Part shown: positions 1 to 63,688 of the stretch, in pieces
How the letters are laid out: each line of letters starts with the position of its first letter
How positions within the stretch are numbered: the first letter of the stretch is position 1
From: Candidatus Bathyarchaeia archaeon
Lineage (GTDB): Archaea; Thermoproteota; Bathyarchaeia; Bathyarchaeales; Bathycorpusculaceae
Assembly: GCA_050012255.1 (NCBI GenBank)
Contig: JBEKHN010000005.1
Location: 53,337 to 117,336 of the forward strand
Reading direction: 5' to 3'
Length of the DNA stretch: 64,000 bases
Translations under genes and position numbers: made by a program
The notes under the pieces: model-generated
What the model was told of the DNA's origin: nothing
Seen by the model: only the letters and a program-made list of their open reading frames with translations
The model's database searches: none

Positions 1-83
1 AAGGACTTGAAACGTTTTTTGTTTTCCAGAGTGTGCAAGAGCATCTGTCTAGTCTCGAGGCTTTGCTTAAGATTCTAGCGCGC

Positions 84-235
84 ATGCCTGTTCCCAAATT
101 CGTTTGCAGAGTATCTTGTGCTTCCGGCTTTACTCCGCCTATGGACAGTGATGGACGTCGGGATACGACGAGCATCGTTCAGAAGGCGCAAATCAACTCT
201 ATCACACTTAAAAATAGGAATTTAGGAACACGCTA
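84..235. mobile_element. MITE-like element 1 (152 bp), flanked on both sides by GCGCGC
   Basis: Ends ATGCCTGTTCCCAAATTC ... GAATTTAGGAACACGCTA are imperfect inverted repeats; GCGCGC at 78-83 and 236-241; same end sequences as elements at 27056 and 60753; no transposase. Confidence 0.75.
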
Positions 236-393
236 GCGCGCGCTATGGCGATTGGGGGTGTTTCAGTCATTAACCACACTTTGAAGTCTTTCGATCAGAA
301 CCATTTCTATCCATTCGTGCGAAGGATTCCGTGCTATAACATTTCTTTCTGCGTAGCCTCTGCCAAGGCTTAGATTCAGCCAAGCTTGTAGTC

Positions 394-3300
394 TTATCTT
401 CCGTCCGGTTTAGCCTTGGGTATGTTTATTGTGAATTGTGCTCCTTTGCCATGCGTGCCTGTTTCGCTGATCGTCCAGCCATAAACCTCCATCATCCTTC
501 TAATCAGGTAAAGCCCGTAGCCTGAGCCTTTGCCAGTAGTGAAACCTTCAGTGAAAAGCTTGGATTTTGCGTCTCGAGATATGCCAACGCCATCATCCTC
601 ATAGATCAGCTTCAGCTTGTCCTCGAATTCCTCATAGCGAACTCTGATTTGAGTTAACTTCTCGCCATACTTGAGCGAGTCATCAATCAAATTGTAGAAA
701 AGCTGTCTCAGGAGCGAATCAGCCAACACGGTCAATCCTCCGCACTCGTTCGTTATTCTGATGCCCTTCAAGTCTGGGAAGAGCGACGCTGCCTCGTCAA
801 CAGCCTTGCCAACGTTCATGTTGACCAGTTGTTCGACGCCCAGCTTCTCGTATGTTCTGGCAAACTCGAAAATGGCTTCCACGTTTCTGACCGCGTTTTC
901 CATGTCGGCCAACTGCTCCAACGCTTCAGGGTTTCCAGCCAGCTTTCGCCTTAGCAGATAAGCGTTTCCAGTTACCGCGCAAAGCTTGTTTCGCACATCA
1001 TGCCTCGTGAGGCTACCAACAACCCGCAGTTTTTCCTCCAGATTCTTCCTTTCCAAAATGTCGCGGAATACCACCAGATCCGCCGGTTTACCTTTATAAT
1101 CGATTTTCGCCGCGTTTATTTCGTACACCAGTTTTCCCCCGTCCTTCTTCAGCATTTCGACTTCGTACGGTTCCACGTGCACTCCCATCATCCTTTCGGC
1201 CAAGTTCTTTATCATTACTGCTTTGGTCCTCGCCCCAAACATTTCTACTTTCAGCAAGTTCTTTCCGACAAGCTCTTCTTTCTTGAACCCAGTTATTTCT
1301 TCCACTTTTTGAGTGACTTCCAAGATTTTTCCTCTTCCATCCACGACAGCCACCGGGTCAGCCATAAGGTCAAACAACATTTGGAAATGCTTTCTCGACT
1401 CTTCCGATTCTTCCTGCGCCCTTTTCAGCTCTGTGATGTCCTTGTACAAAACTATGTCACCTAAATGCTGGCCTTGGAGCACGATTGGGGCAGAGGACAA
1501 GGCCACAGGAATTGGAGAGCCCTTTTTGTTCTTCCTAACAGTCTCATAGTAGACGTATCCTTCCTTGCCTCTCTGGGCTAACATCAACGCCTCTTTTCTC
1601 CTATCCTCTGGCACCACAAAGTCGTCGAGGAATTTTTCCTTGACTTCGTCAAAAGAGTATCCAAAAAGCTCGGTGAAACGCGGATTAACGTTCAAGACTC
1701 TTTCGTTTGGGTCTACGTACACTGCCGCCTCGGGATTACTCATGAATAGCTGTTCAAACTTCTCTTGATTCTCTTGAATCAGCTTTTCTGCGTTCTTTCG
1801 TTCAGAGACATCTCTCATGACTACTTGAACGCCTACAGGCTTGCCATCTTCAATCAATAATCCAGGATGCACTTCTGCCCATCGACTCGTTCCATCTTTC
1901 CGAACATAAAGGAATTCAACTGGTGAAAGTGGTTCTCCATTCATCAGTGAGCTGAGCATCTCTTGAAATTTTGGAATGTCCTCCACTGGAATAGTCTTCA
2001 ACTCCGTGAATGGCTTGCCAACGATTCCTTCGTCAGAGTCATAGCCCACTAGCCTCAGGAAACTACGGTTGGCCGATGTGACTATGCCTTCTGCATTCAC
2101 AGCTACTATGCCGTCGGGAGCCAGCTCAATCAGATTTCTATATTTTTCCTCAGATTCCTTCAACGTTTGTTCTGCTTTCTTGCGTTCGGTGATGTCTCTA
2201 TGTATGACTTCTATACCGATGACCTTGCCTTTCTGTTTATACGTGCTAACACTGAGCTCAAGCGGAATGGATTCTCCTTTCTTGTTCATTCCCCTTATTT
2301 CGTATACGAGGGGAAGTTCCTCTTCTGAGTATTTTGTCTGATATTTTTCTAGAACCATGGCGCGATCGTCAGGGTGGACAAAATCCAAGAACGCTTTGCC
2401 TTTCAGTTCTTCATCAGTGTATCCTGATGATTTCTTGAATGCTGCGTTGTAGTCTATGAGGCGACCTTCTCTTCCAACGAAGATGCCCACAGGGTCTTGT
2501 ATGCTTTCGAACAAGCCCCTAAACCTTTCCTCAGACTCTCTTAACAATTCCTCGCTTTTCTTGCGTTCAGTAATGTCTTCTATTGCACTCACAAAGCCTA
2601 TTGGATTGCCAGAAATGTCTCTTAGAACGCTCGCACTAACTGACAGCGCCCGTCTGCTGCCATCATTGGCGATAATTGTGTATTCTATGCTTCTCATTAG
2701 ACCTTGCTTCAGGACTTTTTCCATGTTCTCCATTGCCCTTTGCCTGTCTTCCTCAGCGATGGGCTCAAGAGCACTTCTTCCGACAGACTCGCTTCTTGAC
2801 GAATACCCAAAAATCTCCTGAGCCCGCCCATTGCACTCCACAATTTTCCCATTCAGATCAATAACGAGAATGGCGTTAGGAGATGCATCGAACAAGCTCT
2901 GCAACCTCCTCTGCCTGTCAGATGACTCGCTTTCGTTTTTCTTGGTTTCAGTGATGTCCAGAACTATGCCGACTGTGCCTGCAAATCGTCCATCGTGATC
3001 AAAAAAAGGGGCACCGGAAATCAGAGCATTCCGAACAGTGCCGTCGCTCCTGCGGAATACGGCTTCATAGCGGCTGGCCTCTCCTTGGCGGCGTCGTTGT
3101 GTCTCATTTTCTATTTTTGCCCAGTTCTCATCGTCGACTATTTTGTGCAGGTTCATGCCTGCAAGCTGGTCTTGTTCGTAACCAACGATGTCAGCGAATG
3201 CTTTGTTGGCATAAACAATGTTCTCTTCAGCATCCACATACGAGATTCCTTCAACCGCGTTCTGATAAATTGTTCGGAGCTTCTGGACTGTCTCCTTCAT

Positions 3301-3759
3301 CTGAGCTTCTGCGGAGTGTTTCTCCACAGTAGACCGCAGACAATGTGCCAGTTCACAATACACTGCTTCAGGATCGCCAGTCTTGTTAACATAGTGGTCA
3401 GCGCCCAGACTCCACGCCTTAACAGCAACTTCCTCTCTTCCTTTTCCAGTGAACATGATAAATGGGATAGTGTTTCCGTTCTTTCTCAGCATTTCCAGAA
3501 ATTCAAGCCCATCTTTCCCAGGCATCTGATAGTCCGAAACGACCGCGTCATAATGCTCTTTCTGAAGCTTCGCTAACGCTTCTTCAACTGAACTCGCGGC
3601 GTCCACTTGGAATAGGCCCTGCAACTCCAAACATTGCTTCGCAACCTTCAGCAAAGCAGGCTCGTCGTCAACATGCAAGACACGAATCTTCGACTTCTCT
3701 GTGGAATCGACAACTATCTCGGCATGTGACTGAACAACAGATTCAACCATGCAAATCAC
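394..3759 (-). CDS. Hybrid sensor histidine kinase: receiver + about six PAS/PAC + HisKA/HATPase
   Basis: VLHVDDE...SDYQMPGKDG receiver; repeated PAS/PAC units ending DITERKK; H-box RHDVRNKL; G-boxes DDGVG, GSGYGL. Confidence 0.92.
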   Translation of the reverse strand: MICMVESVVQSHAEIVVDSTEKSKIRVLHVDDEPALLKVAKQCLELQGLFQVDAASSVEEALAKLQKEHYDAVVSDYQMPGKDGLEFLEMLRKNGNTIPFIMFTGKGREEVAVKAWSLGADHYVNKTGDPEAVYCELAHCLRSTVEKHSAEAQMKETVQKLRTIYQNAVEGISYVDAEENIVYANKAFADIVGYEQDQLAGMNLHKIVDDENWAKIENETQRRRQGEASRYEAVFRRSDGTVRNALISGAPFFDHDGRFAGTVGIVLDITETKKNESESSDRQRRLQSLFDASPNAILVIDLNGKIVECNGRAQEIFGYSSRSESVGRSALEPIAEEDRQRAMENMEKVLKQGLMRSIEYTIIANDGSRRALSVSASVLRDISGNPIGFVSAIEDITERKKSEELLRESEERFRGLFESIQDPVGIFVGREGRLIDYNAAFKKSSGYTDEELKGKAFLDFVHPDDRAMVLEKYQTKYSEEELPLVYEIRGMNKKGESIPLELSVSTYKQKGKVIGIEVIHRDITERKKAEQTLKESEEKYRNLIELAPDGIVAVNAEGIVTSANRSFLRLVGYDSDEGIVGKPFTELKTIPVEDIPKFQEMLSSLMNGEPLSPVEFLYVRKDGTSRWAEVHPGLLIEDGKPVGVQVVMRDVSERKNAEKLIQENQEKFEQLFMSNPEAAVYVDPNERVLNVNPRFTELFGYSFDEVKEKFLDDFVVPEDRRKEALMLAQRGKEGYVYYETVRKNKKGSPIPVALSSAPIVLQGQHLGDIVLYKDITELKRAQEESEESRKHFQMLFDLMADPVAVVDGRGKILEVTQKVEEITGFKKEELVGKNLLKVEMFGARTKAVMIKNLAERMMGVHVEPYEVEMLKKDGGKLVYEINAAKIDYKGKPADLVVFRDILERKNLEEKLRVVGSLTRHDVRNKLCAVTGNAYLLRRKLAGNPEALEQLADMENAVRNVEAIFEFARTYEKLGVEQLVNMNVGKAVDEAASLFPDLKGIRITNECGGLTVLADSLLRQLFYNLIDDSLKYGEKLTQIRVRYEEFEDKLKLIYEDDGVGISRDAKSKLFTEGFTTGKGSGYGLYLIRRMMEVYGWTISETGTHGKGAQFTINIPKAKPDGR

Positions 3760-3942
3760 ACTTTACACTAGTCCACTACACGCACGTGCACCTGTGACGT
3801 TGTTTTGAATGTCCTTCTCCTGATTAAACACTTATGAACACAAAATCAATACTCAATGGCAACCCCTCCAAAACCACACAAACACTCAACACAAGACCAA
3901 CATTCAGCCGTAAAAGCGCGCGTGCAAAGCGTTCAAAACGAA

Positions 3943-3973
3943 GACGAGAGTTCGAATCTCTCCCGGGCTACCA
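3943..3973 (+). other. tRNA 3' fragment (T-arm + acceptor strand + CCA), probably tRNA-Gln; att-like remnant
   Basis: GAC GAGAG TTCGAAT CTCTC CCGGGCT A CCA; GGGCTA-CCA end is typical of archaeal tRNA-Gln; no complementary 5' half (AGCCCGG) upstream. Confidence 0.8.
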
Positions 3974-4383
3974 CTCTCGAGTTTGATTATACTAAATTCT
4001 GCTGAGAGGTTTCGCTCATTTCCCCTCTTTTTCTGTTTCTAGGAGACGATCATCCTTGAATGAGTGTAAAGTCGTTCTTGTTTTCAGAAGGTATGAAGAG
4101 TTTTGGAGGTTCTGTTTTTCAGAGTGCAGAGATTTCAAGCTCGGTTGTGCTAAGTCTTGCAAGTTTAGGAAGGCTCTTGTTATCTCCCATGCTGATCGAT
4201 CCAGCTACTTCTTGCCGTTAATTCATAATACTTGTCGATGGAGAGATGAGCAGCGCGCGCTACCAAAAAAACAACCTGCAATAAATCTATTGCTATCCTG
4301 TGTTTCTCTGTTCTTTAGCTCTTTCAGCTTGACTAGAGCCTTTTCTTTGAGGGGCAATCTGGATTTCTGCGATATTTGAAGAA

Positions 4384-4539
4384 CTAAGTTATACTTGTTC
4401 CTGTTTTCTCTCTACAATACCAACAATAGCCTTCTTCATCCATATTATAGTCTTTACATTTTGGACAAAGTCTTCCTTGTCTTGATTCTTCAAGAAATCG
4501 TTTTCTTGGTTCTTTCGAAGTTTTTTTCTCTTCACTCAT
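4384..4539 (-). CDS. Small zinc-finger protein (51 aa)
   Basis: MSEEKK...CPKC-x9-CWYC; GAGG upstream of ATG at 4539. Confidence 0.55.
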   Translation of the reverse strand: MSEEKKTSKEPRKRFLEESRQGRLCPKCKDYNMDEEGYCWYCREKTGTSIT

Positions 4540-4549
4540 TTTTAAACCT

Positions 4550-4765
4550 CTAGTTTGTCTTCTGTTTACGCGCAGATAATGCGCGCGCCGTGAAAGACAA
4601 TGATTCACCCGTCCTCTCCTTGTAATTATGCATATACTCACGGGCCTTAGTCACGTCAAGCTCAATCAACCCGTAGACCCGATTCTTCACTGCCATGTTA
4701 TCCAGCATCTCAATACCCCAACCGCGATTCTTCCTTACTTCCCGAAAAGTCCCTATGTAATCCAG
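4550..4765 (-). pseudogene. N-terminal fragment of a 2-oxo-acid dehydrogenase E2-like acyltransferase
   Basis: My translation: ...RVYGLIELDVTKAREYMHNYKERTGESLSFTA; resemblance to the family ends in GCGCGCGC at 4581-4588. Confidence 0.7.
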
Positions 4766-4983
4766 CTCTCATCCCAACCCAAGACTATTCGCAGATACTA
4801 TTTGTCAACCTTGGCAGTAAAAGACCTTGCGCAACATAATCTAAGCGCGCGCTACAATGTTGAGACAGCACTGCAGAATATCAGACATAATCAAGGGTGG
4901 CGTTGTCAGGTGGCTACCTCATGAAGAGGCTTGAGAGAACTAAGAGACTAAAGAGAGATAGACTATTGCGCTAATCTCGCGCG

Positions 4984-5115
4984 CTATTTCTTACCTTTAT
5001 CATATTCTGCAGGGAGTTCAACACTCCGTTTCTCTTTCCTTTTCAGTTCCTTCTCTCTCTGCAATTTCATGTGGCGTTTATGATCCATAGCTTTCTCTTT
5101 CTTGCCTTTGGGCAC
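4984..5115 (-). CDS. Tiny basic protein (43 aa) MPKGKKEKAMDHKRHMKLQREKELKRKEKRSVELPAEYDKGKK
   Basis: GTG start after GGAGGGTGA SD; TTTTAATA TATA-like box upstream; TAG stop overlaps the GCGCGC motif. Confidence 0.55.
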   Translation of the reverse strand: MPKGKKEKAMDHKRHMKLQREKELKRKEKRSVELPAEYDKGKK

Positions 5116-9524: not shown

Positions 9525-9811
9525 CGCCTCTGATAACAGTAAACCATTAGAAGTTTAAGAACAAGTATCTGAAAAGTCTTTTCATGAATGAAGCACTCGA
9601 TGGATACGGAGCGATTTTCAGTTTTGCGGATGGTTTTGCGACGTAGATTTCCGCGCGCGCTACAGACAGACACAGAAAACCAACAAAAAACAAAACAAGA
9701 GATGAAGGCTGTTCAATGGAGAAATATCTGACAATGAGTTTCAGAGATTACGTTTGAAAGTATGCCTATTATTCTTGGACTGTTGCACGCTTTTTTTGTG
9801 TGGCGCGCGCT

Positions 9812-9913
9812 ACGGTTCGAGAAGTGGTTCTGATACCATGCTCATACTGCGGCGGGCTCATGCCCCAAACTTCCCTCTTCTGTCCAAACTGTGGAGCAAG
9901 AAGAAGAGCCTGA
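9812..9913 (+). pseudogene. C-terminal fragment of a zinc-ribbon protein
   Basis: My translation TVREVVLIPCSYCGGLMPQTSLFCPNCGARRRA*; the fragment starts directly after GCGCGCGC at 9803-9810. Confidence 0.6.
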
Positions 9914-10147
9914 CGAACTGTATCAACATTCCATGAACATTTTCAAAACCCTGAAAACCCCATATACAGCATACTGCGCTGACCAGCACCTGAACGGGTT
10001 TAGGCTTCTAGGGAATTGAACCCAAAAGGAGGCGGGCTCAAATCTCGTATAATCCTACGGCTTTGGATTTGGGCAAAAATCTGTACGCGCGCTTTCACAT
10101 ATATTCAGATTGTCCAACACGGGTTCTATGCCGATCCAGCCAAGAAT

Positions 10148-10345
10148 TCATAAGGAATTGGCAATTGAAGGGTTACATGAAACAAGGCATCTTGGCGCGC
10201 GCACAGGCATCTTGAGAACACCGACGTAATCGGTCTTTCCATAATGCAAATCGCGGAGCCCATCAAGATTCGAAATGCCTACGGCTTTGAAACTTGTTTT
10301 CCTTGCTTCTTCTTTCACGTTCTCGGTCAATGTCACGATTGGCAC
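10148..10345 (-). pseudogene. N-terminal fragment of a QueG-like (epoxyqueuosine reductase family) Fe-S protein
   Basis: TLTENVKEEARKTSFKAVGIS...LKMP resembles the family N-terminus; plausible sequence ends at GCGCGCGC 10195-10202. Confidence 0.55.
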
Positions 10346-11899: not shown

Positions 11900-12452
11900 C
11901 TTTTCTACCTACCTACCTACTTTTTAAAGGCATCGCGTATTGAATGATTGCAGTCAACGGGATAAGCGTTCTACAGGCATGTGATGGTTAGATCAGTGCT
12001 TCGAAGAAGCCTTAGCTATGGCCTGGCGCGCGTAGCACGCCTGGGGGATTTGAGCCCAAACGGTTGAGCCGCAGTTGTCGGAACAGAGATTTAACCTTGG
12101 AACTGGGAGTCAAGCCCAATCCAAAAGCGATTGCAATTGTCTTCGGGAATCGATTCCAGCGGGGCGCACCTAAAATGGGGTGGGCCCAGACTACGTTGAG
12201 CACTTCTGTACCCATCAAAGTTTGTTTTAGGACTACTAAAAAACGCTTAACGGCATACCATTTAACAGAGATCCTTCTGCTGAAGCCAAGCGCGTTATGG
12301 AGCATCAAATACAGATTCTGCTTTCATACATCTTATATCCGATTTTGAAAAACCTCTATTCTGATTCAGATGCATATGAATCAAAAGTCAACGTCGAAAT
12401 TGCTAGACTCCATCAGCGATAACCTTCAACTGGGAAAAGTGGAAAAAACCTT

Positions 12453-14231: not shown

Positions 14232-14345
14232 CCGATCCTCTTGCGAATTTACCGGTAAGAAAGCGTTGCAGAATCCGGATTTCTCACAGACAAAAGAAAA
14301 TTATAACCATCTGAAAGCTTAACGCGCGCTGAAGGATTTTCGTTT

Positions 14346-14436: not shown

Positions 14437-14612
14437 TTCCACTACAGCCTTCTCCAAAAAAACAATTCTCTTTTGATTTTCGTATTTCTCTCAAGCAGAT
14501 ATTTCATCAGAGTTCGGTCTGATTGGCGCGCGCGCAGAGTTTGAGAAAGAAACATAAGATACTAGCGTGTTTTGAGGAGAGAGGAACAAGCGCCTTACGG
14601 TGAGATGTCAAA

Positions 14613-15065: not shown

Positions 15066-15137
15066 CCAGCGCGTGCGTCGATCAATGACTGAGGAATTGA
15101 CTATTTTTTAATTTTCCGATTATCTTTTTTAGTTTGT

Positions 15138-18266: not shown

Positions 18267-19028
18267 TTAATAGCATTTAATATTTTGTTGTTCCCCAGCG
18301 TTTGTCTTGCGCGCGCGCTTTTGTATTCTCGTTATTAGGCACGCTTTGATGCAGAGGCCGCATACGTCCCCGCCGAACACGATTTGAATGTATTCGTGAC
18401 ATTTCTCCTTGTTTATCAGCCATCCTTCAGAAGCATCGTAGACTGGGTTTTCCAAGGCTCCGGCAGGACATGCCTTGACGCATTTTAGGCACTTCTCCAT
18501 GAGGCAAATGTCCTCGGTCAAGGGTCTATCAGGTCTAAGCGCGGCGCTTGTTATGACTGTGACAAAACGTACGTAAGGCCCGTAATCTGGTGTCAAGACC
18601 AGATTGTTCATTCCAAATCTGCCTAGGCCAGCTGCGACGGCCGCGTGCTTGTGCGACATATCCCCGAAATTCTTCTTCTTATCGTACGGTGAGCTGGCTG
18701 GAATCGCTAAAGCTTCGTATCCAAGGTCTTCGAGAAATCTGGCTGTCTCCCATGCCAGGCTGTTAAGCTTGAGGTTTGCCACGTCATAGTTTATCTTGTA
18801 CTCTCTCATGGTTTTTGGAAGTTGAAGAATTGAAGACCTGTTTATTCTTAGACCTATGGAGATGACACTTTTGGCGTTCGGCAAGAGGTCTCTCGGACGA
18901 TGGCCTTTCGGCGCTCTTGAGAATCTTTTGGTGGTTGCAACTCCTACGAGTGTTGCTCCCTTCTTTTTGACGAAATCTTTGACCTTCCCCGTGAGACCAG
19001 CCAAGTTTTCACCTTGGGAACTGCTCAT
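18267..19028 (-). CDS. QueG-like cobalamin/Fe-S reductase
   Basis: SHKHAAVAAGLG, GPYVRF, CxxxxCxxCxxxCP and CGLCIKAC; (GC)5 run in the C-terminal tail. Confidence 0.85.
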   Translation of the reverse strand: MSSSQGENLAGLTGKVKDFVKKKGATLVGVATTKRFSRAPKGHRPRDLLPNAKSVISIGLRINRSSILQLPKTMREYKINYDVANLKLNSLAWETARFLEDLGYEALAIPASSPYDKKKNFGDMSHKHAAVAAGLGRFGMNNLVLTPDYGPYVRFVTVITSAALRPDRPLTEDICLMEKCLKCVKACPAGALENPVYDASEGWLINKEKCHEYIQIVFGGDVCGLCIKACLITRIQKRARKTNAGEQQNIKCY

Positions 19029-27044: not shown

Positions 27045-27055
27045 TGTTAGCGCGC

Positions 27056-34574: not shown

Positions 34575-34594
34575 ACGATGATTCCTGTTTTGTC

Positions 34595-39884: not shown

Positions 39885-40008
39885 ACATGGAACAACAGCA
39901 AACACTCGTTGCATTTCCTTTTTTTGGACCAAGGCCGCGGTTAACGCTGATGGTTGTACGAAAGGCTTTTTACTTTTCTCTTTAAGCTGTAGTGCATGAG
40001 GGGAAGTC

Positions 40009-40245: not shown

Positions 40246-40278
40246 GTAGCAGCTAAACGCGTGTCAAGTGAAAAATGC

Positions 40279-41463
40279 ATGTCGACGACGCAGCGAGTTT
40301 ACATGGACCATGCGGCTGGAAAACCTGTAGAGCCTCGGGTCACAGAGGCCATGCTGCCTTATATGGAATCGTCTTTCGGCAACGCTTCATCCTTGCACGT
40401 GTTCGGCCAAGAGGCTAAGCGCGCACTTGAAGACGCGCGGGCAAAAGTTGCTGCGTTGATTAACGCTGAAAAAAGGGAGTCTATAATTTTCACTTCAGGA
40501 GCCACCGAGAGCAACAACATGGCAATAAAAGGAGTTGCAAACCGGAACAAGGACCATGGAACACGAATAATAACGTCAGCGATTGAGCACATGTCAGTGG
40601 TCAACTCGTTCAAGTTCTTGACCACAAGAGGATTCGAATCCGTCTTCGTTCCAGTTGACAAGTACGGTTTTGTGATTCTCGAGAACCTGGAAAAAGTATT
40701 GACCGATAAGACAATCTTCGTTTCTATTGTATACGCAAACGGCGAAATAGGAACAGTTGAACACATAAGGGAAATCAGCAAAATTGTGCACAGCAAGAAT
40801 GCTTACTTCCATGTAGATGCCACAGCCGCTTGTGGGCAGGTTCCGATAGACGTGAAAAACGAGAACATAGACCTGCTCACGATCTCCTCCAACGACATGT
40901 ATGGCCCTAAGGGTGTCGGTGCCCTGTACATCAAGGCAGGAGTGCCGGTGGAACCATTGTTACATGGCGGTGGACAGGAACGTGGGTTAAGGTCGGGAAC
41001 AGAAAACCTGCCCGGCATAGTTGGTTTCGGAAAGGCTGCTGAAATAGCCAAGAGGGAAATGCAGACTAATAGTGTCCAGCTGACAAAGTTGAGAGACAGA
41101 TTCATTGATGGTTTGTTGAAGCCAATTCCATATTCATTCTTGAATGGGCATCCGACAGAACGACTGCCTGACAACGTTTCCGTTAGGTACAGTTTCATAG
41201 AGGGTGAATCGATGCTGCTGAGCCTTGACATGATCGGCGTTTATGCGTCGTCAGGTTCAGCCTGCACAGCAAAAACCTTGGAACCCTCGCACGTGCTGTT
41301 AGCAATTGGACTTAAACATGAGGAAGCACATGGTTCCCTGATGTTCACTCTGGGGAAGGAGAACACTGCGGAACAGGTTGACTACGTAATAGGCTTGATG
41401 CCTGCCATAGTAAAAAGGTTAAGAGCGATATCGCCGTTAACTCCGAAGGAGCTGAACGTTTGA
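40279..41463 (+). CDS. iscS: IscS/NifS-family protein with the PLP-binding Lys replaced by Asp
   Basis: TSGATESNN, HVDA, SSNDMYGPKG, SSGSAC. Confidence 0.9.
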   Translation: MSTTQRVYMDHAAGKPVEPRVTEAMLPYMESSFGNASSLHVFGQEAKRALEDARAKVAALINAEKRESIIFTSGATESNNMAIKGVANRNKDHGTRIITSAIEHMSVVNSFKFLTTRGFESVFVPVDKYGFVILENLEKVLTDKTIFVSIVYANGEIGTVEHIREISKIVHSKNAYFHVDATAACGQVPIDVKNENIDLLTISSNDMYGPKGVGALYIKAGVPVEPLLHGGGQERGLRSGTENLPGIVGFGKAAEIAKREMQTNSVQLTKLRDRFIDGLLKPIPYSFLNGHPTERLPDNVSVRYSFIEGESMLLSLDMIGVYASSGSACTAKTLEPSHVLLAIGLKHEEAHGSLMFTLGKENTAEQVDYVIGLMPAIVKRLRAISPLTPKELNV

Positions 41464-41849
41464 TGTACACCGAGAAAGTGATGGAGCATTTCAGAAACCC
41501 ACGGAACATGGGCGAGATCCCGGATGCGGATGGTATAGGCACGGTGGGTAACCCTGTTTGCGGAGACCTCATGACCATCTACATCAAGGTCAAGGACGGT
41601 CGTCTCGAAGACATCAAGTTCAAGACTTTCGGCTGCGGGTCAGCGATCGCGACGAGCAGCATGATCACGGAGCTGGCCAAGGGGAAAACGTTGGAGGAAG
41701 GAATGAAGATCACCCGCGCAAACGTCGCAGACTCTCTCGGCGGCTTGCCACCTGTCAAGATGCACTGTTCAAACCTCGCGGCTGACGCGCTGCACGCTGC
41801 CATAGAGGACTATTTTAAGAGACAGAAGGCCAAAGAGGTGAAAGGATGA
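41460..41849 (+). CDS. iscU: Fe-S scaffold IscU/NifU
   Basis: NPVCGD, FGCGSAIA, KMHCSNLA. Confidence 0.95.
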   Translation: MMYTEKVMEHFRNPRNMGEIPDADGIGTVGNPVCGDLMTIYIKVKDGRLEDIKFKTFGCGSAIATSSMITELAKGKTLEEGMKITRANVADSLGGLPPVKMHCSNLAADALHAAIEDYFKRQKAKEVKG

Positions 41850-42007
41850 AGCCCAAATTCGTCAGATGCGAATACTGCAAGGCTGAGATACAGCAAGAAA
41901 CGTGCAGACTCGCGGCCTACACGACCACGATAGACGGAAAAGAGTACGCCTTCTGCTGCGTCAGATGCGCCGAGCGGTACGAGCAAAAGAAAGCAAAGGC
42001 AAAATAG
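41846..42007 (+). CDS. TRASH/YHS-like small metal-binding protein (53 aa)
   Basis: My translation: CEYC...IDGKEYAFCCVRC; ATGA overlap with the iscU stop. Confidence 0.8.
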   Translation: MKPKFVRCEYCKAEIQQETCRLAAYTTTIDGKEYAFCCVRCAERYEQKKAKAK

Positions 42008-42065
42008 CTGAGAACAAAGTTTTAAGCATTGAACGCGTGACTTCTGTGTTGAAAGGTGATGTGCG

Positions 42066-42284
42066 TTGGCTTGCTGGAAATGGTTTAACGACGTGCTGAA
42101 GGAGGCAGGTGTCAAGGTGACCGACAAGAACAAGGGCAAGGTTGACGAGGTTATTCACAAGTACATCGGTGAGCAGTCGAGCTACGGAAGTTGCTCCGCA
42201 GACTGGCGAAAGGCCAGAACGCAGATTCAGGGAAACGAAAAGATGAAGAAGGAACTGATCGCAAAGCTCAAAGCCTTGACTTAA
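42066..42284 (+). CDS. Small hypothetical protein
   Basis: GGTGA SD; MACWKWF...CSADW. Confidence 0.7.
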   Translation: MACWKWFNDVLKEAGVKVTDKNKGKVDEVIHKYIGEQSSYGSCSADWRKARTQIQGNEKMKKELIAKLKALT

Positions 42285-42435
42285 GATTTTTTCAACCACA
42301 TTCCAATTCTAGACAAACTTCCATTTTTGTTTGATCCTGGCGGTAGTTGAGTGCGGCCTCTCCTGCAGAGGCCTCGCGGCGTTTTTCACAGGTTTCCAAC
42401 GCATGATGCTGAAGACCCGTCTTGGTCAACGGTTT

Positions 42436-43230
42436 TCACTTTGTCCGCAGGGACACATCTCCGGCGAAAACATGTTTGAGGGCTCCGTTCTCAAGCATGA
42501 GAATCAGGACTCCGTCCCTGTCCACGTCATAGGCCAACCCTGTGATCTTTTCGTTTCTGTCTGTCACTTCGACCTGTTGGCCGAGGAAGCCAGCGTACCT
42601 TTTCCATTGCTTAAGAATCGAGCTGAAGCCTCTTCTGGTGTAGAGTACATACGTTGCTTCCAGCTTCTCGAGCAGTCTGTTGAAAAGTTCTTCCAGCTGA
42701 ATTCTTCTGTTAAGCTCGGTTTCCAACGATGTGGCCCTTGCCCTGATCGATTCTGGTAAGACTCGTTCAGCGAAGTTAGCGTTTATTCCGATTCCCAAGA
42801 CGACGGCGTTGATTTCTTTGCCCGTTGAGGTCGTCTCTCCGAGTATGCCGCAGATTTTGCGTCCGTTCACGAGTACGTCGTTGGGCCACTTGGTCTGAGT
42901 CCTCAGGCCGTACTGTTCATGCAGAGTCTCGGCGACTGCGATCCCGGCCACGAATGTGAGTTTGGCAGCCTCCGCCAAGCCTTGTCTAGGCCTGAGAATC
43001 AACGAGAACCACAGCCCCCCAAGAGGTGAGATCCATTCGCGGTCGAGTCTTCCCCGCCCGTGGGTTTGAGTTTCTGCGATCACGACCCATCCCTCTGGGG
43101 CGCCTTGGCTCGCCAGCTTCTTGGCCCACTCGTTTGTTGAGGCGACTTCCTTTGAGAAGAAGATGCTTTTGCCCAGGAGTCTGGTTCTTGAGCCTTTTTG
43201 GAGCTTGCTGGGGTTCAGCCTTTTTGCCAT
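42436..43230 (-). CDS. birA: Biotin-protein ligase
   Basis: STN, QTHGRGR, KWPND, KICGIL, GIGIN. Confidence 0.93.
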   Translation of the reverse strand: MAKRLNPSKLQKGSRTRLLGKSIFFSKEVASTNEWAKKLASQGAPEGWVVIAETQTHGRGRLDREWISPLGGLWFSLILRPRQGLAEAAKLTFVAGIAVAETLHEQYGLRTQTKWPNDVLVNGRKICGILGETTSTGKEINAVVLGIGINANFAERVLPESIRARATSLETELNRRIQLEELFNRLLEKLEATYVLYTRRGFSSILKQWKRYAGFLGQQVEVTDRNEKITGLAYDVDRDGVLILMLENGALKHVFAGDVSLRTK

Positions 43231-43343
43231 GTTAGGTCGCCGTTGGCTGGTTTCATGCGGTCAAACGCATTACCTTTTTTCTGGGTAAGGGTAGCCAAGG
43301 TTGAGTGTGAGGTTCGTCAAGGATTTAAGTTTGGTCTTCGTCT

Positions 43344-44231
43344 ATGCTATTGTTGAAGCAGGTGCGGCGAGTGTTCAACCTTTTTCCCGTGGAGGTTTCA
43401 CTGCTCGCATCATCCTTGGTTCTAACTGCGATGGGTTGTGCTGCGCTGGTCTTTTCGTTGGCGTTAGGCAGGAAATCGCGTGCTCTTGGAAGGCTTTCGA
43501 AGAACTTGTCGGTTGGAGTTTTCAGCAAGACTTTCAACGTTTTCGACCCGAACATGGAGCATAGGAGGATAATAAGCAGCCACACGGGGCTGATTGTTTT
43601 TCTTGCTATTTACGGTTCTTGGTTTGCTGTCACCATCGGTGTTTTCACGACTCTTGCGGCTGGAGGCTTGATGGCCAGCGTTATTTTCCTAGTCTGTGCT
43701 GGACTGCTGATGATTGATGAGACTCACGAGCTGAACAAGAATGCAGGCATCTTCGTTAAAGCGATCAGAGGTGGGACTCGTCTGGGTGTGGGCGATCTGC
43801 ACGCTTTGTTTGTGATGAGGAGGACGTTGCCGAAGTTAAGCCTGTACCATCTGGTCTTGGCAGTCGTGTTTTTCGTTTCTGCGTTTGCGGTTCCGTACCT
43901 TTCAACCATACTCTTTCTGGCATGTGCCGGTGCGGCATCGGTGTTCTTTGCGTTGAGCTCTCTTCTGATGGCTGTTCCCTTGCTGTCCATTCTTGCTGTT
44001 GCAGGTCTTCTCGGCGCGGTTATCGCGATGATCGTGATAGGGAGCAATGAGGTTAGCAGAGTGTTTTTCGGTTTCCCGCGGTCTATACGGTTGGATGTGT
44101 TGGACAGTCAGCTTGACCGGATGAAGATTTACGTGCGTTTCCAGCATCATCGTCCGGGGCTTGGTGTGCCCGAGCCTGAGGAGACCGAGAAATTCAACAG
44201 GAGAGAGCTTGAGGAGCACGGCGGGTCTTAG
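43344..44231 (+). CDS. Membrane protein of unknown function
   Basis: Multiple hydrophobic segments; start uncertain. Confidence 0.65.
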   Translation: MLLLKQVRRVFNLFPVEVSLLASSLVLTAMGCAALVFSLALGRKSRALGRLSKNLSVGVFSKTFNVFDPNMEHRRIISSHTGLIVFLAIYGSWFAVTIGVFTTLAAGGLMASVIFLVCAGLLMIDETHELNKNAGIFVKAIRGGTRLGVGDLHALFVMRRTLPKLSLYHLVLAVVFFVSAFAVPYLSTILFLACAGAASVFFALSSLLMAVPLLSILAVAGLLGAVIAMIVIGSNEVSRVFFGFPRSIRLDVLDSQLDRMKIYVRFQHHRPGLGVPEPEETEKFNRRELEEHGGS

Positions 44232-44537
44232 TCGACGTTTTGAACTGCACCAGCGAGAGAGCCCATGCGCGTTGCACCAGTGTCTTCTTCGTTGCGGTTA
44301 GCCCATGCGTATGGTTAGACCGTGAGAAGTTACAGCATTCCCTGTTTCGCGTTCTCACCCGTCCAACACACCCTACCTCCCTCCCCCTAGGTTTTTTCCG
44401 CAGCAAGCACTGTTAACGAGTCTCTAGCGGGCACTACTTGAGTTTTGTTGATGGTTGCGGCGCGGTTTTCAACATAGAGTTTGGAGCGTGCGCCCCAGAG
44501 AAATCGATTTAAACTGGTGCAGTTGGATATCTCGACT

Positions 44538-45095
44538 ATGAGTGCTCCGGTTAACATGTTGGGTTTTGCTGGAAGTCTCCGCAAGAACTCATACAATAAG
44601 GCGTTGCTGCGCGCAGCTGATGAACTAGTCCCCACGAATGCGAAGCTCGGGATTTTTGACCTTCTTGGAATTCCGCCGTTCAATCAAGACCTAGAGACTC
44701 AGCCGCCTCAGAAGGTCAAGGAGTTCAAGGCCAGAATCAGAGGGGCAGACGCGATACTGATTGCGACGCCCGAATACAACTATTCGATACCTGGCGTGCT
44801 CAAAAACGCGATCGATTGGGCTTCAAGACCTCCAGCTGATAATGCTTGGGAGGGCAAACCTGTGGCCATAATGGGCGCGTCTACAGGAAGATTTGGCACA
44901 GCGAGGGCGCAGTATCATCTGCGGCAATGTTTCGTTGGGCTTGACATGCACGCCGTCAACTATCCGGAGGTTATGATAGCTCATGCAGCACAGTGTTTTG
45001 ACGACCCGGGCAGGCTGAAGGATGAGAAAGCAAGAGAGCTGATCGCCGAACTGCTGCAAAACCTGGTCGACTTAACCAGAAAATTCCAGAGCTAA
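44538..45095 (+). CDS. NADPH-dependent FMN reductase
   Basis: GSLRKNSYN, TPEYNYSIPGVLKNAIDW, GKPV. Confidence 0.93.
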   Translation: MSAPVNMLGFAGSLRKNSYNKALLRAADELVPTNAKLGIFDLLGIPPFNQDLETQPPQKVKEFKARIRGADAILIATPEYNYSIPGVLKNAIDWASRPPADNAWEGKPVAIMGASTGRFGTARAQYHLRQCFVGLDMHAVNYPEVMIAHAAQCFDDPGRLKDEKARELIAELLQNLVDLTRKFQS

Positions 45096-45151
45096 CACGG
45101 CCTTCAAGCGTTTGTGAGCACGAGAGCCAAAGTTTGATCCTCAACTAGTCT

Positions 45152-60546: not shown

Positions 60547-60752
60547 ATCGTCGCACGGCTTGAGCCAAACATCCGTGAATCGTCATTAACACAGAGAAGC
60601 GAAAGATTGGCTCAAGAAAAAACAAATGCGCGAAGACGATGACCGCGCGTGCATTGCAGCCACAAACATCAAGGAAGCTACGGAGCCCATCGAAGCAGGA
60701 TACGAATGCGTCTGCGACATGGAAAACGACAAGCTGTTCAGAAAACGCGCGC

Positions 60753-60918
60753 ATGCTTGTTCCTAAATCCCGTTGAACAGGGAGGCATGGCGTTACTGTC
60801 ACGGTTCGAGTTGGTGCTTGCTCACACCCTCCCCCCGGGTATGCTATATGGCCCAAATATGGCTGAAGAGCAAATGAGCAGCACAAGCCACTTCCCAAAA
60901 GAATTTAGGAACGCGCTA
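60753..60918. mobile_element. MITE-like element 3 (166 bp)
   Basis: ATGCTTGTTCCTAAATCC ... GAATTTAGGAACGCGCTA; GCGCGC at 60747-60752 and 60919-60924; equals element 2 minus 18, 4 and 1 bp indels plus substitutions. Confidence 0.85.
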
Positions 60919-60948
60919 GCGCGCTACCTTAGACGTCTGGGGTGAGGC

Positions 60949-61125: not shown

Positions 61126-61307
61126 ATTTCTCTGGAGTTGATTGCACCCGATATAACATCATCCTGCTTTGACTCTGCTATTTCAGCAAAAAGGTAGCGC
61201 GTGGCGCGCTAAATTACTGAGAATTTTCCCTTGAAGAGGGGCGACGAGATTTGTCTAGGTAATCGTGCCTTACTTACCTTTGACCTGGAATTTCTTGGAG
61301 GCGGGAA

Positions 61308-62966: not shown

Positions 62967-63016
62967 TCAATCACCTTATCGAATATTCCATCAGTTGCAG
63001 AAGGCTTTTATATGTG

Positions 63017-63044
63017 GTGTTACGAATTGGCATAATCGTAACAC
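63017..63044. promoter_or_regulatory. Putative NikR operator GTGTTACGA-N10-TCGTAACAC
   Basis: Perfect 9-10-9 (6-16-6, 28 bp) palindrome just downstream of TTTTATAT. Confidence 0.75.
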
Positions 63045-63062
63045 GTGCACCAGTGAAATATC

Positions 63063-63614
63063 ATGCCTTACTATTCAAGTCGAGAAATAGCCGCTATAGC
63101 CCTTTTTGCGGCCCTTTGGGGCGTGCTAAACTCCATCTTTTCCCCAATCGTCTTCAGAATGTTCGGGTTACCTATTCTCTGCGACATGATCGGCTTTTCA
63201 GTGCTTTCCATGACCGTGTGGTGGGTCAGAAAACCCGGAGCCACAACTCTCGTCGGGCTTATCGCGACAGCGATAAACTTCATATTCAACCCTGGCGGCG
63301 TGTTCTTTCTGGGTTTCACTGTTGCCAGTCTAGTCTTTGACGCCGTCGCTTGGATCGCGAGATACGATTCCTATTTCACGAAGGCATCTTTGACAGCGAT
63401 CTCATTGCTGTTCACTTCAGTGCTGTCAGCTGCTGTTGCGGGTCTCATTATCGGCAACTATTTCATGGCGCCGTCTGCCTTAGTCAGTTGGAGCGGGATT
63501 CTAGGATGGGCTGGGCTCCACGCAATTGGTGGTATCATAGGCGGATTCATCGGAGCAATGGTGGTTACAAGTTTGGTCGCTAGAGGTTTTCGAACAATGG
63601 GTGCAAGGAAATAG
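63063..63614 (+). CDS. ECF transporter S-component-like membrane protein
   Basis: About six TM; SSREIAAIALFAALWGVL, VRKPGA. Confidence 0.75.
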   Translation: MPYYSSREIAAIALFAALWGVLNSIFSPIVFRMFGLPILCDMIGFSVLSMTVWWVRKPGATTLVGLIATAINFIFNPGGVFFLGFTVASLVFDAVAWIARYDSYFTKASLTAISLLFTSVLSAAVAGLIIGNYFMAPSALVSWSGILGWAGLHAIGGIIGGFIGAMVVTSLVARGFRTMGARK

Positions 63615-63688
63615 AGCGCGCGTTAAGCATATAAGGGGCTCAAGATTTACTCCCAGAACCAAGGAATAACGTCTGAAAGGTGGGCATT

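Follow-up and report, generated by a model that had tools for sequence, protein, structure and literature searches.

IS5-group elements insert at a short, CTAG-like palindrome and duplicate 3–4 bases, and we know of no IS5 member reported to leave genome-wide scars. Footprints of Tc1/mariner elements have the form TA + tip + tip + TA, and excision footprints are rarely seen in prokaryotes. IS1272, an IS1182-family element of Staphylococcus, targets and replaces palindromes with no target duplication (PMC5678879), and a preprint (bioRxiv 10.1101/2024.06.02.596822) reports large deletions without duplications coupled to IS insertions. The DNA studied here, a 64-kb stretch (the window) of a 2.35-Mb Bathyarchaeia MAG (G000), contains many short runs of alternating GC, and more than one in three of the indels between this genome and its sister species have such a run. 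We propose that the runs are probably the footprint and re-used landing site of an IS5/IS1182-like transposon clade.

The transposase of this clade has the DUF772 + DDE_Tnp_1 architecture of the IS1182 family. Its best NCBIfam match is the IS1182 model (140 bits; equivalog cut-off 270), and the IS5_4 model aligns over its full length (positions 14–281 of 285) at 99 bits, with a cut-off of 140. As for the IS1182 family and IS1272, the sites are palindromic and no target duplication is visible outside the palindrome. However, the protein is shorter (341 aa vs. a 488-position model), the element is smaller (1.09 kb) and the host is an archaeon. In addition, there is one fixed short palindrome, (GC)3–4, whereas IS1272 has varied stem-loops of 21–85 bp (PMC5678879), and we know of no description for it of the hundreds of solitary palindromes and the deletion scars that we see. 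The clade resembles the IS5 family (and PIF/Harbinger and Tourist-type MITEs) in its single DDE transposase, its many MITE derivatives and its short inverted repeats, which have a TGTT core, but its target, if the GC run is the target, is a GC-only palindrome of 6–8 bases. Short palindromes at empty sites, probably remnants of element tips, also recall Tc1/mariner and hAT excision footprints, and TA(GC)nTA formally matches the Tc1/mariner shape; here, however, the transposase belongs to another superfamily, the host is a prokaryote and the scars mark kilobase deletions too. REP elements are likewise short intergenic palindromes in hundreds of copies, but they are imperfect hairpins of 20–40 bases, whereas the runs have 6–10 bases and the elements they go with are of the DDE type and have inverted repeats; no Y1 transposase domain (RAYT) was found in G000 (98.5% complete).

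GC runs in the window and across the genome

All 30 GCGCGC positions listed in an earlier note on this DNA, 25 as junction and five as coding sites, are (GC)3 to (GC)5 runs, of which the window holds 30 (Table 1). Overlapping matches to GCGCGC number 43, compared with 13.95 ± 4.29 in 100 dinucleotide-preserving shuffles, none of which reaches 43. The whole genome contains 919 runs; GCGCGCGC is its commonest 8-mer (434 copies), and GCGCGC has the top observed/expected ratio among all hexamers (1353 vs. 878). On a crude ORF map (greedy choice of ORFs of at least 80 aa, covering 84% of bases; not a gene caller), run density is 1.43 per kb outside ORFs and 0.20 per kb inside, a ~7–8-fold difference, and the outside/inside ratio is 8.45 for GCGCGC vs. 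0.5–2.0 for other G3C3 hexamers. The GC-run observation is real and genome-wide, and the intergenic enrichment is the one that the note had named beforehand as a check. Its statement that TA often follows is fairly worded but not the rule, with TA immediately 3' of the run on the + strand in 8 of 30 cases (236, 4253, 4845, 4979, 9653, 9803, 60919 and 61204). The variants claimed at 5164, 15069, 60645 and 62534 are present as GCGCGTGC, which also occurs at 3918; since 6 of 100 shuffles reach these five matches (1.8 expected), the enrichment of GCGCGTGC is weak alone.

The strong intergenic bias, a slight excess of runs within 40 bases after stop codons and the ability of alternating GC to form Z-DNA could all be taken to mean that the runs are functional host signals under selection in spacers, such as Z-DNA-forming or protein-binding sites, terminators, or methylation/restriction sites (we take GCGCGC to be a BssHII-type site). 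We regard this as improbable in the extreme. Tandem, divergent and convergent spacers hardly differ in run density (1.38, 1.29 and 1.54 per kb), which argues that the runs are not promoters or terminators, and an Rfam search of the window gave no match. Moreover, the runs are not conserved in place among sister genomes, as they might be on the grounds that the earlier note gave for doubting mobility: their density is 0.41 per kb in aligned non-coding DNA and 1.4–3.0 per kb at boundaries and where the DNA is unaligned, and each intergenic run of the window either marks the edge of a homology block or is situated in DNA that lacks a counterpart in the fetched syntenic sister regions. Of the in-gene hexamers, those at 34992, 37239 and 40419 can be compared in both G001 and G002 (29359 and 44609, in DNA unaligned to these two sister genomes, were excluded); GCGCGC is kept in neither, so that these three are ordinary coding sequence and probably lie outside the system.

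Table 1 Window features that carry or adjoin GC runs, in window positions.
Feature	Coordinates	Strand	Details
MITE, 7-copy family	78..243		GCGCGC left, (GC)4 right; ends GCGCGC-ATGCCTGTTCCCAAATTC ... GAATTTAGGAACACGCTA-GCGCGCGC
Five solitary runs	3916..4984		(GC)3 at 3916 and 4979; (GC)4 at 4253, 4581 and 4845
Four solitary runs	9653..10202		(GC)4 at 9653, 9803 and 10195; (GC)3 at 10087; same variable region as 3916..4984
Solitary (GC)3	12026..12031		Upstream of 7TM histidine kinase gene (12453–14231)
Solitary (GC)3	14324..14329		Downstream of 7TM histidine kinase gene
(GC)5	14526..14535		Exact homology boundary; match to three sister genomes begins directly 3'
530-bp segment	14536..15068	+	SnoaL-like ORF (14613–15065); bounded by GC runs
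GCGCGTGC	15069..15076		One-transition variant of (GC)4; right edge of SnoaL segment; GCGCGCGC in L001
Strain-specific segment	15077..18308	-	Eco57I/MmeI-like restriction-modification (RM) fusion gene (15138–18245)
(GC)5	18309..18318		Exact homology boundary
(GC)4	23846..23853		Stands where G001 and G002 have differing DNA
MITE, ~200 bp	27050..27250		11-copy family in G000; GCGCGC both sides
Solitary (GC)4	27427..27434		Just upstream of strain-specific NHL-repeat gene (27456–29996)
Five in-gene (GC)3 hexamers	29359..44614		29359, 34992, 37239, 40419, 44609
Two (GC)3 runs	32436..32614		At 32436 and 32609, around 167 bp; both block boundaries vs. G001
1.47-kb stretch	43630..45103 (C5:96966-98439)	+	3' two-thirds of 295-aa gene and FMN-reductase gene; absent in G002
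MITE	60747..60924		Family of 27050–27250; GCGCGC both sides
Solitary (GC)3, then TA	61204..61209		Downstream of MFS transporter gene (61308–62495, minus strand)
Solitary (GC)3	63616..63621		2 bases past stop codon of ORF 63063–63614

Within the window, GCGCGC bounds all three MITEs (78–243, 27050–27250 and 60747–60924), the runs at 12026 and 14324 bracket the 7TM kinase gene, and 15069 and 18309 bracket the RM gene, all as previously described. The five runs at 3916..4984 are spaced by 130–330 bp of unique DNA, in a variable region to which nothing corresponds in the syntenic DNA fetched from two sister genomes. The SnoaL segment is also GC-bounded in L001, where the junction sequence was read; homology in G001 and G002 ends at its edges, all four block ends vs. 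G002 lie near a run, and the neighbouring DNA varies between genomes. In sister genomes the slot of the RM segment holds 5.3, 10 and 26 kb of different DNA. At 18309, G001 and G002 have no GC run and different sequence onward, and L001 has GCGCGC with yet another left-hand neighbour. Compared with two sister genomes, this run takes the place of the 3' end of a Fer4-type ORF (18267–19166), which bears out one of three truncated genes claimed earlier; the other run-adjacent genes scanned have full-length Pfam matches or none. At 23846, G002 has 1.47 kb (an msrA-like gene and another ORF) with ACGCGC on either flank, and in G001 the place is taken by 2.4 kb of unrelated DNA that is free of GC runs. 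The segment from ~26645 to 30053 has no counterpart at the same place in G001 or G002, and at the positions of the 32436 and 32609 runs G002 reads GTCCGC and CTGCGC.

Element ends, transposase and empty sites

A 1.09-kb IS5/IS1182-like insertion sequence has GCGCGC as the outermost six bases of its ends, mostly with A or TA in front; its 341-aa DDE transposase is degenerate in G000 and intact in sister genomes. The same GC-tipped ends are found on at least four MITE families, all three window MITEs among them, and the family of the 27050–27250 MITE has many copies in sister genomes. The insertion-sequence ends read (T)AGCGCGC-ATGCnTGTTCCTAAAT, identical to the window MITE ends, and in this genus the family-specific inverted repeat after (T)A-GCGCGC is ATGC/TAGC-nTGTTCCTAAAT. 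The enzyme that the earlier note had expected to lie outside the window is thus an IS5/IS1182-like transposase sharing the ends of the window MITEs. In G000, MITE ends accompany broken DUF772 and DDE_Tnp_1 ORFs at C24:15256-16324; two contigs end inside the element and several more at its ends. G006 has an intact 341-aa transposase gene between the same ends, and further same-ended copies are present in G012 (329 aa, contig end), G030 (292-aa ORF), G004 (broken) and G029 (broken). G037, from another genus, has a 37% identical transposase and ends reading GCGCGC-TAGCCTGTTTAGAAATT; the GC tip is kept while the remaining repeat has diverged.

Directly outside 121 strict inverted-repeat ends in 3.95 Mb lies exactly (GC)3 in 82 cases and (GC)4 in 5; the remaining 34 mostly carry a point-mutated 6-mer among the examples listed. 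Where the run is (GC)3 or longer, A precedes it at 74 of 87 ends and TA at 49 of 87. No target duplication outside the run was found at six IS copies of this genus or at two in G037, and with these eight copies the GCGCGC at the ends may be either the element's own bases or duplicated target. A recognisable inverted repeat adjoins 97 of 1838 run sides and is lacking at the other ~95%, so that most runs are tied to elements only because we infer it.

Occupied and empty alleles of one site are seen at C9:93085, C12:25820 and C4:77055, where (GC)3-MITE-(GC)3 in a sister genome corresponds to an 8-base run in G000. At C9:93085 and C12:25820 a MITE is present in G002 as well as in G001, which sequence identity places as the outgroup; those at C12:25820 come from two different families. 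At three other occupied sites (C22:25996, C23:10769 and C12:61124) the empty alleles lack any GC run, and the runs there seem to arrive together with the element. At three sites, a few other bases stand in the empty allele instead of the element, resembling the 'replacing' mode described for IS1272 (PMC5678879).

Two different MITE families in one run mean that the run is a re-used target, and this could also be the case if the runs were made by the host, as self-complementary (GC)n filler at the joining of broken DNA, through which any pair of ends could anneal, with the IS/MITE clade merely targeting these palindromes and duplicating 4–6 bases. At element ends, (GC)3 and (GC)4 flanks stand in a ratio of 88:9, which fits a 4-base duplication within targets that are (GC)4 for the most part and (GC)5 less often (307 vs. 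57 solitary runs), and palindrome targeting has been reported for IS1182-family elements (PMC5678879). We nevertheless consider a host origin unlikely: it does not account readily for the three run-free empty alleles or for a GC tip that is conserved between such distant transposases.

Indels, deletion scars and the origin of the runs

A GC run stands at the short-allele joint of 29 of 76 distinct indel junctions between sister genomes (38%), vs. a background of 1.7% in any DNA and 4.9% in non-coding DNA (binomial P about 8e-19); the other 47 have no run. Synteny breakpoints thus coincide with the motif, as the earlier note had proposed to check. In 22 of the 29 scarred indels the long allele is run-free at both ends. 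Two are polarised as new deletions (C5:96966-98439 and C4:49508-50069), since G000 and the outgroup G001 have the long allele and the scar is in G002. At the former, G002 has the 10-base filler AGCGCGCGCT (TAGCGCGCGCTT and two flanking T's), and since the 295-aa gene is intact in G000 and in the more distant G001, the deletion is derived and the scar in G002 is new. At C4:11903, G001 and G002 share the scar and 1267 bp are present in G000; on the identity-based tree, such a pattern would require an insertion erasing a run or recombination between lineages. No single-step event (element, then scar) was caught between near-identical strains (contigs of other samples).

The 22 joints with a new run, where the undeleted allele has neither run nor element, are what host filler would produce. 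Yet the flanks of the scars are A...T or TA...TA, as at element ends, which points to element-derived bases, and to our knowledge no polymerase adds strictly alternating GC. The same joints speak against GCGCGC as the core site of an integron-like or Xer-like site-specific recombinase, by which cassettes would move and two-site recombination would delete the DNA between, since such an enzyme would have to find runs on both sides of the DNA before deleting it. The segments 14536–15068 and C28:387-975, run-bounded on both sides with neighbours that differ between genomes, and the three different contents of slot 23846 in three genomes are in line with cassettes. However, among 887 homology blocks of 330–6000 bp only 2 have runs at all four ends, and the enzyme found with these ends is a DDE transposase, making a recombinase very improbable. 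The block counts suggest that the mosaic reflects hot spots where insertion, loss and deletion recur, more than it reflects cassette shuffling. Of the earlier proposals, the target site or excision/deletion footprint fares well, all three of the tests named against it having come out in its favour, and the motif-bounded cassette mosaic is the weaker part.

Under the transposon reading, the host genus, together with a small number of further genera in its family, carries cut-and-paste IS5/IS1182-like insertion sequences of ~1.1–1.2 kb, each with one DDE transposase of about 325–341 aa with an N-terminal DUF772 domain, and several non-autonomous MITE families have the same ends. Every element end consists of (T)A-GCGCGC and then a family-specific inverted repeat, and solitary A(GC)3–5T runs are sites holding no element, probably remaining after element loss and also serving as palindromic sites that are entered again. 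Loss may leave the tips behind through staggered transposase cuts and joining of the self-complementary GC ends or, alternatively, through replication slippage between two GCGCGC tips, which are also direct repeats because they are palindromic. The kilobase scarred deletions would be multi-step, with an element inserting with loss of target DNA and then being lost, or with two elements bracketing a segment before one or both are lost. Selection would clear runs from genes and so give rise to the intergenic bias.

Distribution across genomes

Run-rich genomes are patchy, comprising 10 of 10 other genomes of the genus and a few from other genera; most related genera have almost no runs, which also argues against a host signal. 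The presence of a Ku homologue in G000, Ku being rare in archaea, would suit end-joining filler, but its distribution does not follow that of the runs: no Ku was found in run-rich G030, G037 and G027 (98, 91 and 94% complete), and run-poor G019, G029 and G055 have one. Neither the end pattern nor the transposase was found in G007 or in G027 (227 GCGCGCGC), a run-rich genome that in this respect favours host filler, and G011 has two end-pattern hits only. MAGs often lose repeats, so the lack or scarcity of elements in these three genomes is weak evidence against the transposon reading. Genomes with at least 16 copies of the end pattern are all run-rich; a point against the transposon reading is G029, in which the element is present together with only 6 GCGCGCGC.

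Distribution of GC runs in the window and the genome

All 30 GCGCGC positions that the earlier note had counted by hand in the window are runs of (GC)3 to (GC)5. With overlaps counted, the hexamer occurs 43 times in the window against an expectation of 13.95 +/- 4.29, a count reached by none of 100 dinucleotide-preserving shuffles. The one-transition variants GCGCGTGC that had been listed alongside are present at their places, but their enrichment is weak on its own (5 vs. 1.8 expected). In G000, the metagenome-assembled genome that holds the window as C5:53337-117336 (2,351,129 bases in 38 contigs, numbered C1 onwards), GCGCGC ranks first among all hexamers by observed/expected ratio (1353 vs. 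878 under a maximal-order Markov model), and GCGCGCGC is the commonest 8-mer, with 434 copies. The 919 runs of this genome, a run being (GC)3 or longer, comprise 551 (GC)3, 307 (GC)4, 57 (GC)5, three (GC)6 and one (GC)7. The ORF map used was crude rather than the output of a gene caller (ORFs of at least 80 aa, greedy choice, 84% of bases covered). On it, 523 runs fall outside ORFs or on an ORF edge and 396 inside, i.e. 1.43 vs. 0.20 per kb, and the intergenic bias proposed from the window therefore holds genome-wide in G000. The outside/inside density ratio is 8.45 for GCGCGC vs. 0.5–2.0 for other G3C3 hexamers. One cluster of 'coding' runs is unrelated to the transposon described below and stems from genes for beta-propeller-type repeat proteins (motif YALNA..G..W, named by eye; C7:98669-99274, C4:120853-120981 and C5:22423-22788), which carry an in-frame GCGCGC per 120-bp repeat.

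T is the next base after 44–47% of runs, and for 164 and 162 of the 919 sides the next two bases are TA. At solitary non-coding runs the share of T is 54–68%, climbing with run length, vs. 34% at coding (GC)3. A Tc1-like target duplication of TA is unsupported, TA being present on both sides at only 30 of the 919 runs and the flanks of IS copies having no common duplication. A promoter or terminator role can be rejected because run density is alike whatever the spacer type (1.38 per kb in tandem, 1.29 in divergent and 1.54 in convergent spacers). Scans of the 64-kb window for tRNAs and against Rfam gave no match.

MITE families and a transposon sharing their ends

Gaps of at most 400 bp between consecutive runs are frequent in G000 (293 of 883, vs. 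123 expected), with a peak at 100–200 bp. Clustering of these 293 inter-run segments yielded MITE families of 15, 11, 9 and 7 copies, 135–230 bp long, together with smaller families, a 6-member cluster that is a repeat protein, and 230 singletons. The families have common ends of the form GCGCGC-(AT/TA)GC-nTGTTCCTAAAT, one family having GCGCGC-TGCCTTGTCCCT, and the three MITEs of the window fall in two of them. As expected for MITEs, the family members are shorter than ~300 bp, non-coding and multi-copy, and have inverted repeats in common with an autonomous IS; their presence or absence varies among sister genomes. In a census of G000 and a further 1.6 Mb from sister genomes, 121 ends match a strict inverted-repeat pattern; exactly (GC)3 stands directly outside 82 ends and (GC)4 outside 5, while the other 34 have, judging from printed examples, mostly a point-mutated 6-mer. 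Where the run is (GC)3 or longer (87 ends), the base before it is A in 74 cases, and TA precedes it in 49.

A search for inverted end pairs 450–4000 bp apart led to C24:15256-16324 of G000, where two broken ORFs match DUF772 (38 bits) and DDE_Tnp_1 (PF01609; 45.7 bits, 46.3 in a second scan). Homologues of this degenerate transposase, 62–71% identical over a 141-aa query, lie between the same ends in five compared genomes (G012, G006, G004, G030 and G029), and at the fetched loci L124–L129 terminal inverted repeats flank a single transposase gene. The copy in G006 (L126, ORF 991-2013) is intact and encodes 341 aa, with an N-terminal DUF772 domain (PF05598; 41.4 bits, cut-off 23.1, residues 47-117) followed by DDE_Tnp_1 (PF01609; 73.4 bits, cut-off 23, residues 134-317). 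The signature of the IS5/IS1182 supergroup is a catalytic D, D, E with Y-2-R-3-E-6-K; read by eye, AMDST, VADPQY and AYRKRVAVERVFSRLK in the translation appear to fit this pattern. The score against the IS1182 equivalog (NCBIfam NF033551) is 140.3 bits vs. a cut-off of 270, the best stretch covering model positions 31-152 of 488, and the protein stays below the cut-offs (110–275 bits) of all IS5 equivalogs, NF033578-NF033581; the best of these, NF033581 (IS5_4), matches over nearly its full length (14-281 of 285) with 98.9 bits vs. a cut-off of 140. Domain matches combined with sub-cut-off family scores point to a divergent member of the IS5/IS1182 supergroup that belongs to no named group's equivalog.

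Self-comparison of G000 revealed no IS copies above ~83% identity over at least 500 bp. The genome also has a C-terminal transposase fragment (C10:60554-60748), contigs C3 and C34 stop inside the element and several further contigs stop at element ends, so that intact copies may have dropped out in assembly. In G037, which belongs to another genus, two intact transposases that are only 37% identical reside in 1.2-kb elements with ends GCGCGC-TAGCCTGTTTAGAAATT and inverted repeats of 23 and 34 nt (96% and 88% complementary). The comparison indicates a GC tip kept across genera while the inner repeat diverged. At eight IS copies, including the two in G037, there is no direct repeat beyond the GC runs. 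The flanking GCGCGC pair could itself be a target duplication, and the 88:9 ratio of (GC)3 to (GC)4 flanks at element ends is equally compatible with fixed tips and with a 4-base duplication in targets of (GC)4 or (GC)5. REP/RAYT systems differ in having a Y1 (IS200-like) transposase gene, which a PF01797 search did not find in G000 (98.5% complete); a control search with the same family matched 6 of 14 known genomes.

Homology boundaries, deletion joints and empty sites

Two sister genomes were compared. G002 and G004 denote one genome, a complete chromosome, of which 1.2 Mb out of 2.35 Mb were used; from G001, likewise one genome with G010, the comparison drew on 0.4 Mb out of 2.4 Mb. Run density in both equals that of G000 (0.37–0.40 per kb). 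Mean identities are 92–93% between G000 and G002, 90.5% between G000 and G001, and 91% between G001 and G002, which by identity alone would make G001 the outgroup of the three. Homology blocks begin or end exactly at window runs 14526, 18309 and 23846, and runs 32436 and 32609 are block boundaries against G001; the remaining intergenic runs of the window lie in DNA without counterpart in the fetched syntenic regions. As for the coding hexamers, those at 34992, 37239 and 40419 lie within aligned blocks with GCGCGC kept in neither sister, and those at 29359 and 44609 are in DNA unaligned to both. Across syntenic spans, density rises from 0.11 runs per kb in aligned coding DNA to 0.41 in aligned non-coding DNA, 1.43 in unaligned non-coding DNA and 1.8–3.0 at most 15 bases from a block boundary. 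Conservation in place, which had been named as an observation that would speak against mobility, is thus not what we see, and a conserved regulatory site is rejected because aligned DNA is the poorest in runs of the non-coding classes.

The window has a hot spot to the right of its SnoaL segment, where G000 has 3.2 kb with a restriction-modification gene and three sisters have other DNA, 5.3, 10 and 26 kb long. The strain-specific gene (15138-18245, minus strand) encodes a 1035-aa single-chain protein with Eco57I, N6_Mtase, MmeI_Mtase and TaqI_C domains and an HSDR_N end, and the content of the slot differs in each of four genomes. The mosaic described in the earlier note is real, but a movement of gene cassettes between runs finds little support: among 887 homology blocks of 330–6000 bp, only two (the SnoaL segment and C28:387-975) have a run no more than 14 bases from each of their four ends, and cassette mobility was set aside on this count. 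In integron-like systems, cassettes are bounded by recombination sites and there is a site-specific recombinase. In assembled contigs of other samples (four public runs, compared with window 12001-32000), a low-depth joint of 26610 to 30088 (side 26 letters) has a filler with CGCGCG, and two loose contig ends have GC runs near their departure from the window; both observations are too weak to count. Elsewhere in the window, the variable, run-rich left part holds a 1096-aa ORF without Pfam match (6234-9524, minus strand), a 432-bp stretch of which matches G002 at another position with 69% identity. The hybrid sensor kinase at 394-3759 (minus strand; 1121 aa) has a receiver domain, 5–6 PAS domains and internal DNA repeats with a period of ~384 bp. 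At 38412-38670, two 76-nt direct repeats, 80% identical and 183 bp apart, lie within overlapping small ORFs, and ~290 bp are missing from G002 at these repeats.

Collinear block pairs with one allele of at most 40 bp and the other of at least 100 bp gave 81 indels at 76 distinct places of G000. A GC run lies at the joint of the short allele in 29 of the 76 (38%), vs. 1.7% of random windows of the same lengths and 4.9% of fully non-coding ones (binomial P ~8e-19), in agreement with the proposal that synteny breakpoints map to the motif. For 22 of these 29, both ends of the long allele are free of runs. The other 47 indels are without a run; they include a clean G001 deletion (window 35544-36894, 10-base overlap) that accounts for the absence from that genome of a Pyr_redox_2-type oxidoreductase gene (35604-36977). 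When polarised, the joints at C5:96966-98439 and C4:49508-50069 (see table) read as derived deletions with a newly made run, the former cutting a 295-aa gene of which G000 and G001 have intact copies. One case conflicts, C4:11903-13171, where recombination is possible because the left flank is unusually divergent (84–86% identity). GCGC as a duplicated 4-base target was discarded for the deletion scars, since GCGC is absent from the breakpoints of the undeleted alleles in those cases that were read.

Sites compared between G000 and its sister genomes (C numbers are contigs of G000 unless marked; L numbers are fetched loci)
Site	Kind	Long or occupied allele	Short or empty allele
C5:96966-98439 (window 43630-45103)	indel joint	1472 bp in G000	G002: AGCGCGCGCT (TAGCGCGCGCTT with two flanking T's)
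C4:49508-50069	indel joint	long in G000, G001 too	G002: CGCGCGCGCTGGGAG
C4:27062-28539	indel joint inside 469-aa gene		G001: CGCGC (with flanks reads TGCGCGCGCTT)
C9:28855-29615	indel joint	long in G000, G002 too	G001: GCGCGCG
C4:11903-13171	indel joint, conflicting	1267 bp with two small genes in G000	G001 and G002: TGCGCGCGCT
C9:93085	full/empty site	MITE with (GC)3 each side in G001 and G002	G000: GCGTGCGC
C12:25820	full/empty site	MITE with (GC)3 each side in G001 and G002, different families	G000: GCGCACGC
C4:77055	full/empty site	MITE in G001	G000: GCGCGCGC
C22:25996	full/empty site		GCT, no GC run
C23:10769	full/empty site	605 bp	CCTAA, no GC run
C12:61124	full/empty site		23 other bases, no GC run
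G002:C1 ~2251983-2253520 (L088)	G002-specific insertion		
G002:C1 ~2007252-2008764 (L097)	G002-specific insertion		
G002:C1 ~2116194-2117634 (L081)	G002-specific insertion		

At C9:93085, C12:25820 and C4:77055 a bare 8-base run therefore occupies the place of an absent element, and one run has seen repeated use. At the three sites whose empty allele has no run, the runs appear to come with the element, with a few target bases replaced rather than duplicated. Four further insertions of ~1.5 kb are specific to G002. The three in the table have target duplications (two of 9 bp, one of 8 bp), inverted repeats of type GGTACTGTTAAGTT..GACCC in two cases and GGTTCCGTTAACTC in one, and non-transposase cargo (an NYN/LabA-like and a methyltransferase-like ORF, both named by eye); they represent another type of non-autonomous element, without relation to the GC runs. 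The fourth is an ACGCGC-flanked msrA-type segment at the window-23846 slot.

Origin and meaning of the runs

In a transposon clade the runs form the constant outermost bases; they also occur at its unoccupied and re-occupied sites, and they arise anew at deletion joints. We consider it probable that this IS5/IS1182-like clade causes them, and the earlier reading of the motif as target or footprint of a transposase or recombinase has come through the comparisons of intergenic enrichment, breakpoints and conservation in place. The main rival is that the host makes the runs as joining filler and the elements merely target them, which seems to us quite unlikely. Ku is rare in archaea; G000 has a homologue (C10:12429-12968; PF02735, 141 bits; 306-aa open frame), and within the genus 8 of 11 genomes have a Ku match, as do 4 of the 50 other relatives. 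Searches of the run-rich genomes G030, G037 and G027 detected no Ku, and the run-poor genomes G019, G029 and G055 each have it; this phyletic pattern rejects Ku as a correlate of the runs.

Counts of GCGCGCGC in 61 genomes show that all 10 other genomes of the genus are rich in it (26–202 per Mb) and that in the family and order most of the remaining genera have 0–14 copies per genome; run-rich genomes outside the genus are G030 (439 copies), G037 (389) and G027 (227). The genus-type end pattern is most frequent in G000 (67), followed by G004 (34), G006 (29), G030 (28) and G010 (16), with 0–6 elsewhere, and G037 carries the variant element. With the queries used, neither end pattern nor transposase was found in G027 and G007, and G011 gave two end-pattern matches only and no transposase. 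G029 has the element, yet only 6 copies of GCGCGCGC.

Returning to the transposon clade as the source, we infer two routes by which runs could be left behind. The transposase may cut a few bases inside the tips, after which the self-complementary GC ends would anneal in different registers to give (GC)3, (GC)4 or (GC)5. Alternatively, replication could slip between the two tips, which are also direct repeats because they are palindromic, at the base of a hairpin-forming element. A kilobase deletion with a scar would need an extra step, either insertion with loss of target DNA or two elements bracketing a segment. There are published precedents for both: IS1272, of the IS1182 family, is reported to replace palindromic targets and make no duplication (PMC5678879), and IS insertions coupled to large duplication-free deletions are reported in a preprint (bioRxiv 10.1101/2024.06.02.596822).

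The elements are best filed as a new, divergent archaeal IS5/IS1182-like branch with a fixed GC palindrome at its tips. Its solitary remnants are the mark of a large part of the rearrangements in genomes of the genus. A search of the accessible literature gave no account of the motif, nor any of IS or MITE elements from Bathyarchaeia, and the present data identify a branch that is so far undescribed. A more far-reaching and rather doubtful idea is that the bare 8-base palindrome is both a working transposon end and a landing pad, so that each visit of an element seeds a permanent, orientation-free recombination site and the transposase, or slippage between sites, could later delete, replace or move the DNA between two of them. 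If true, this single IS clade would be chiefly responsible for the loss and replacement of genes in the genus, with over a third of all indels and, in a genome of 2.35 Mb, ~500 sites involved. Were the runs true excision scars, this would be a rare case of a prokaryote with transposon footprints across its genome, and the runs would naturally document earlier element activity; were they made by the host instead, they would be the signature of an unknown end joining.

Bathyarchaeia are abundant uncultured archaea of sediment and peat, and to our knowledge almost nothing is known on how their genomes change. A short mark that is readable from sequence alone and sits at more than a third of sister-species indels flags DNA that was inserted, lost or replaced. 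For annotation, runs and MITEs explain contig breaks in these assemblies and mark likely pseudogene boundaries. The IS/MITE repeat family is a main cause of assembly breaks in G000, its copy number there is probably underestimated, and many contigs stop in or at IS or MITE ends at C3 177866-177991, C34 8786-8911, C8 1-118, C9 93-109, C16 245-261 and C20 112-128.
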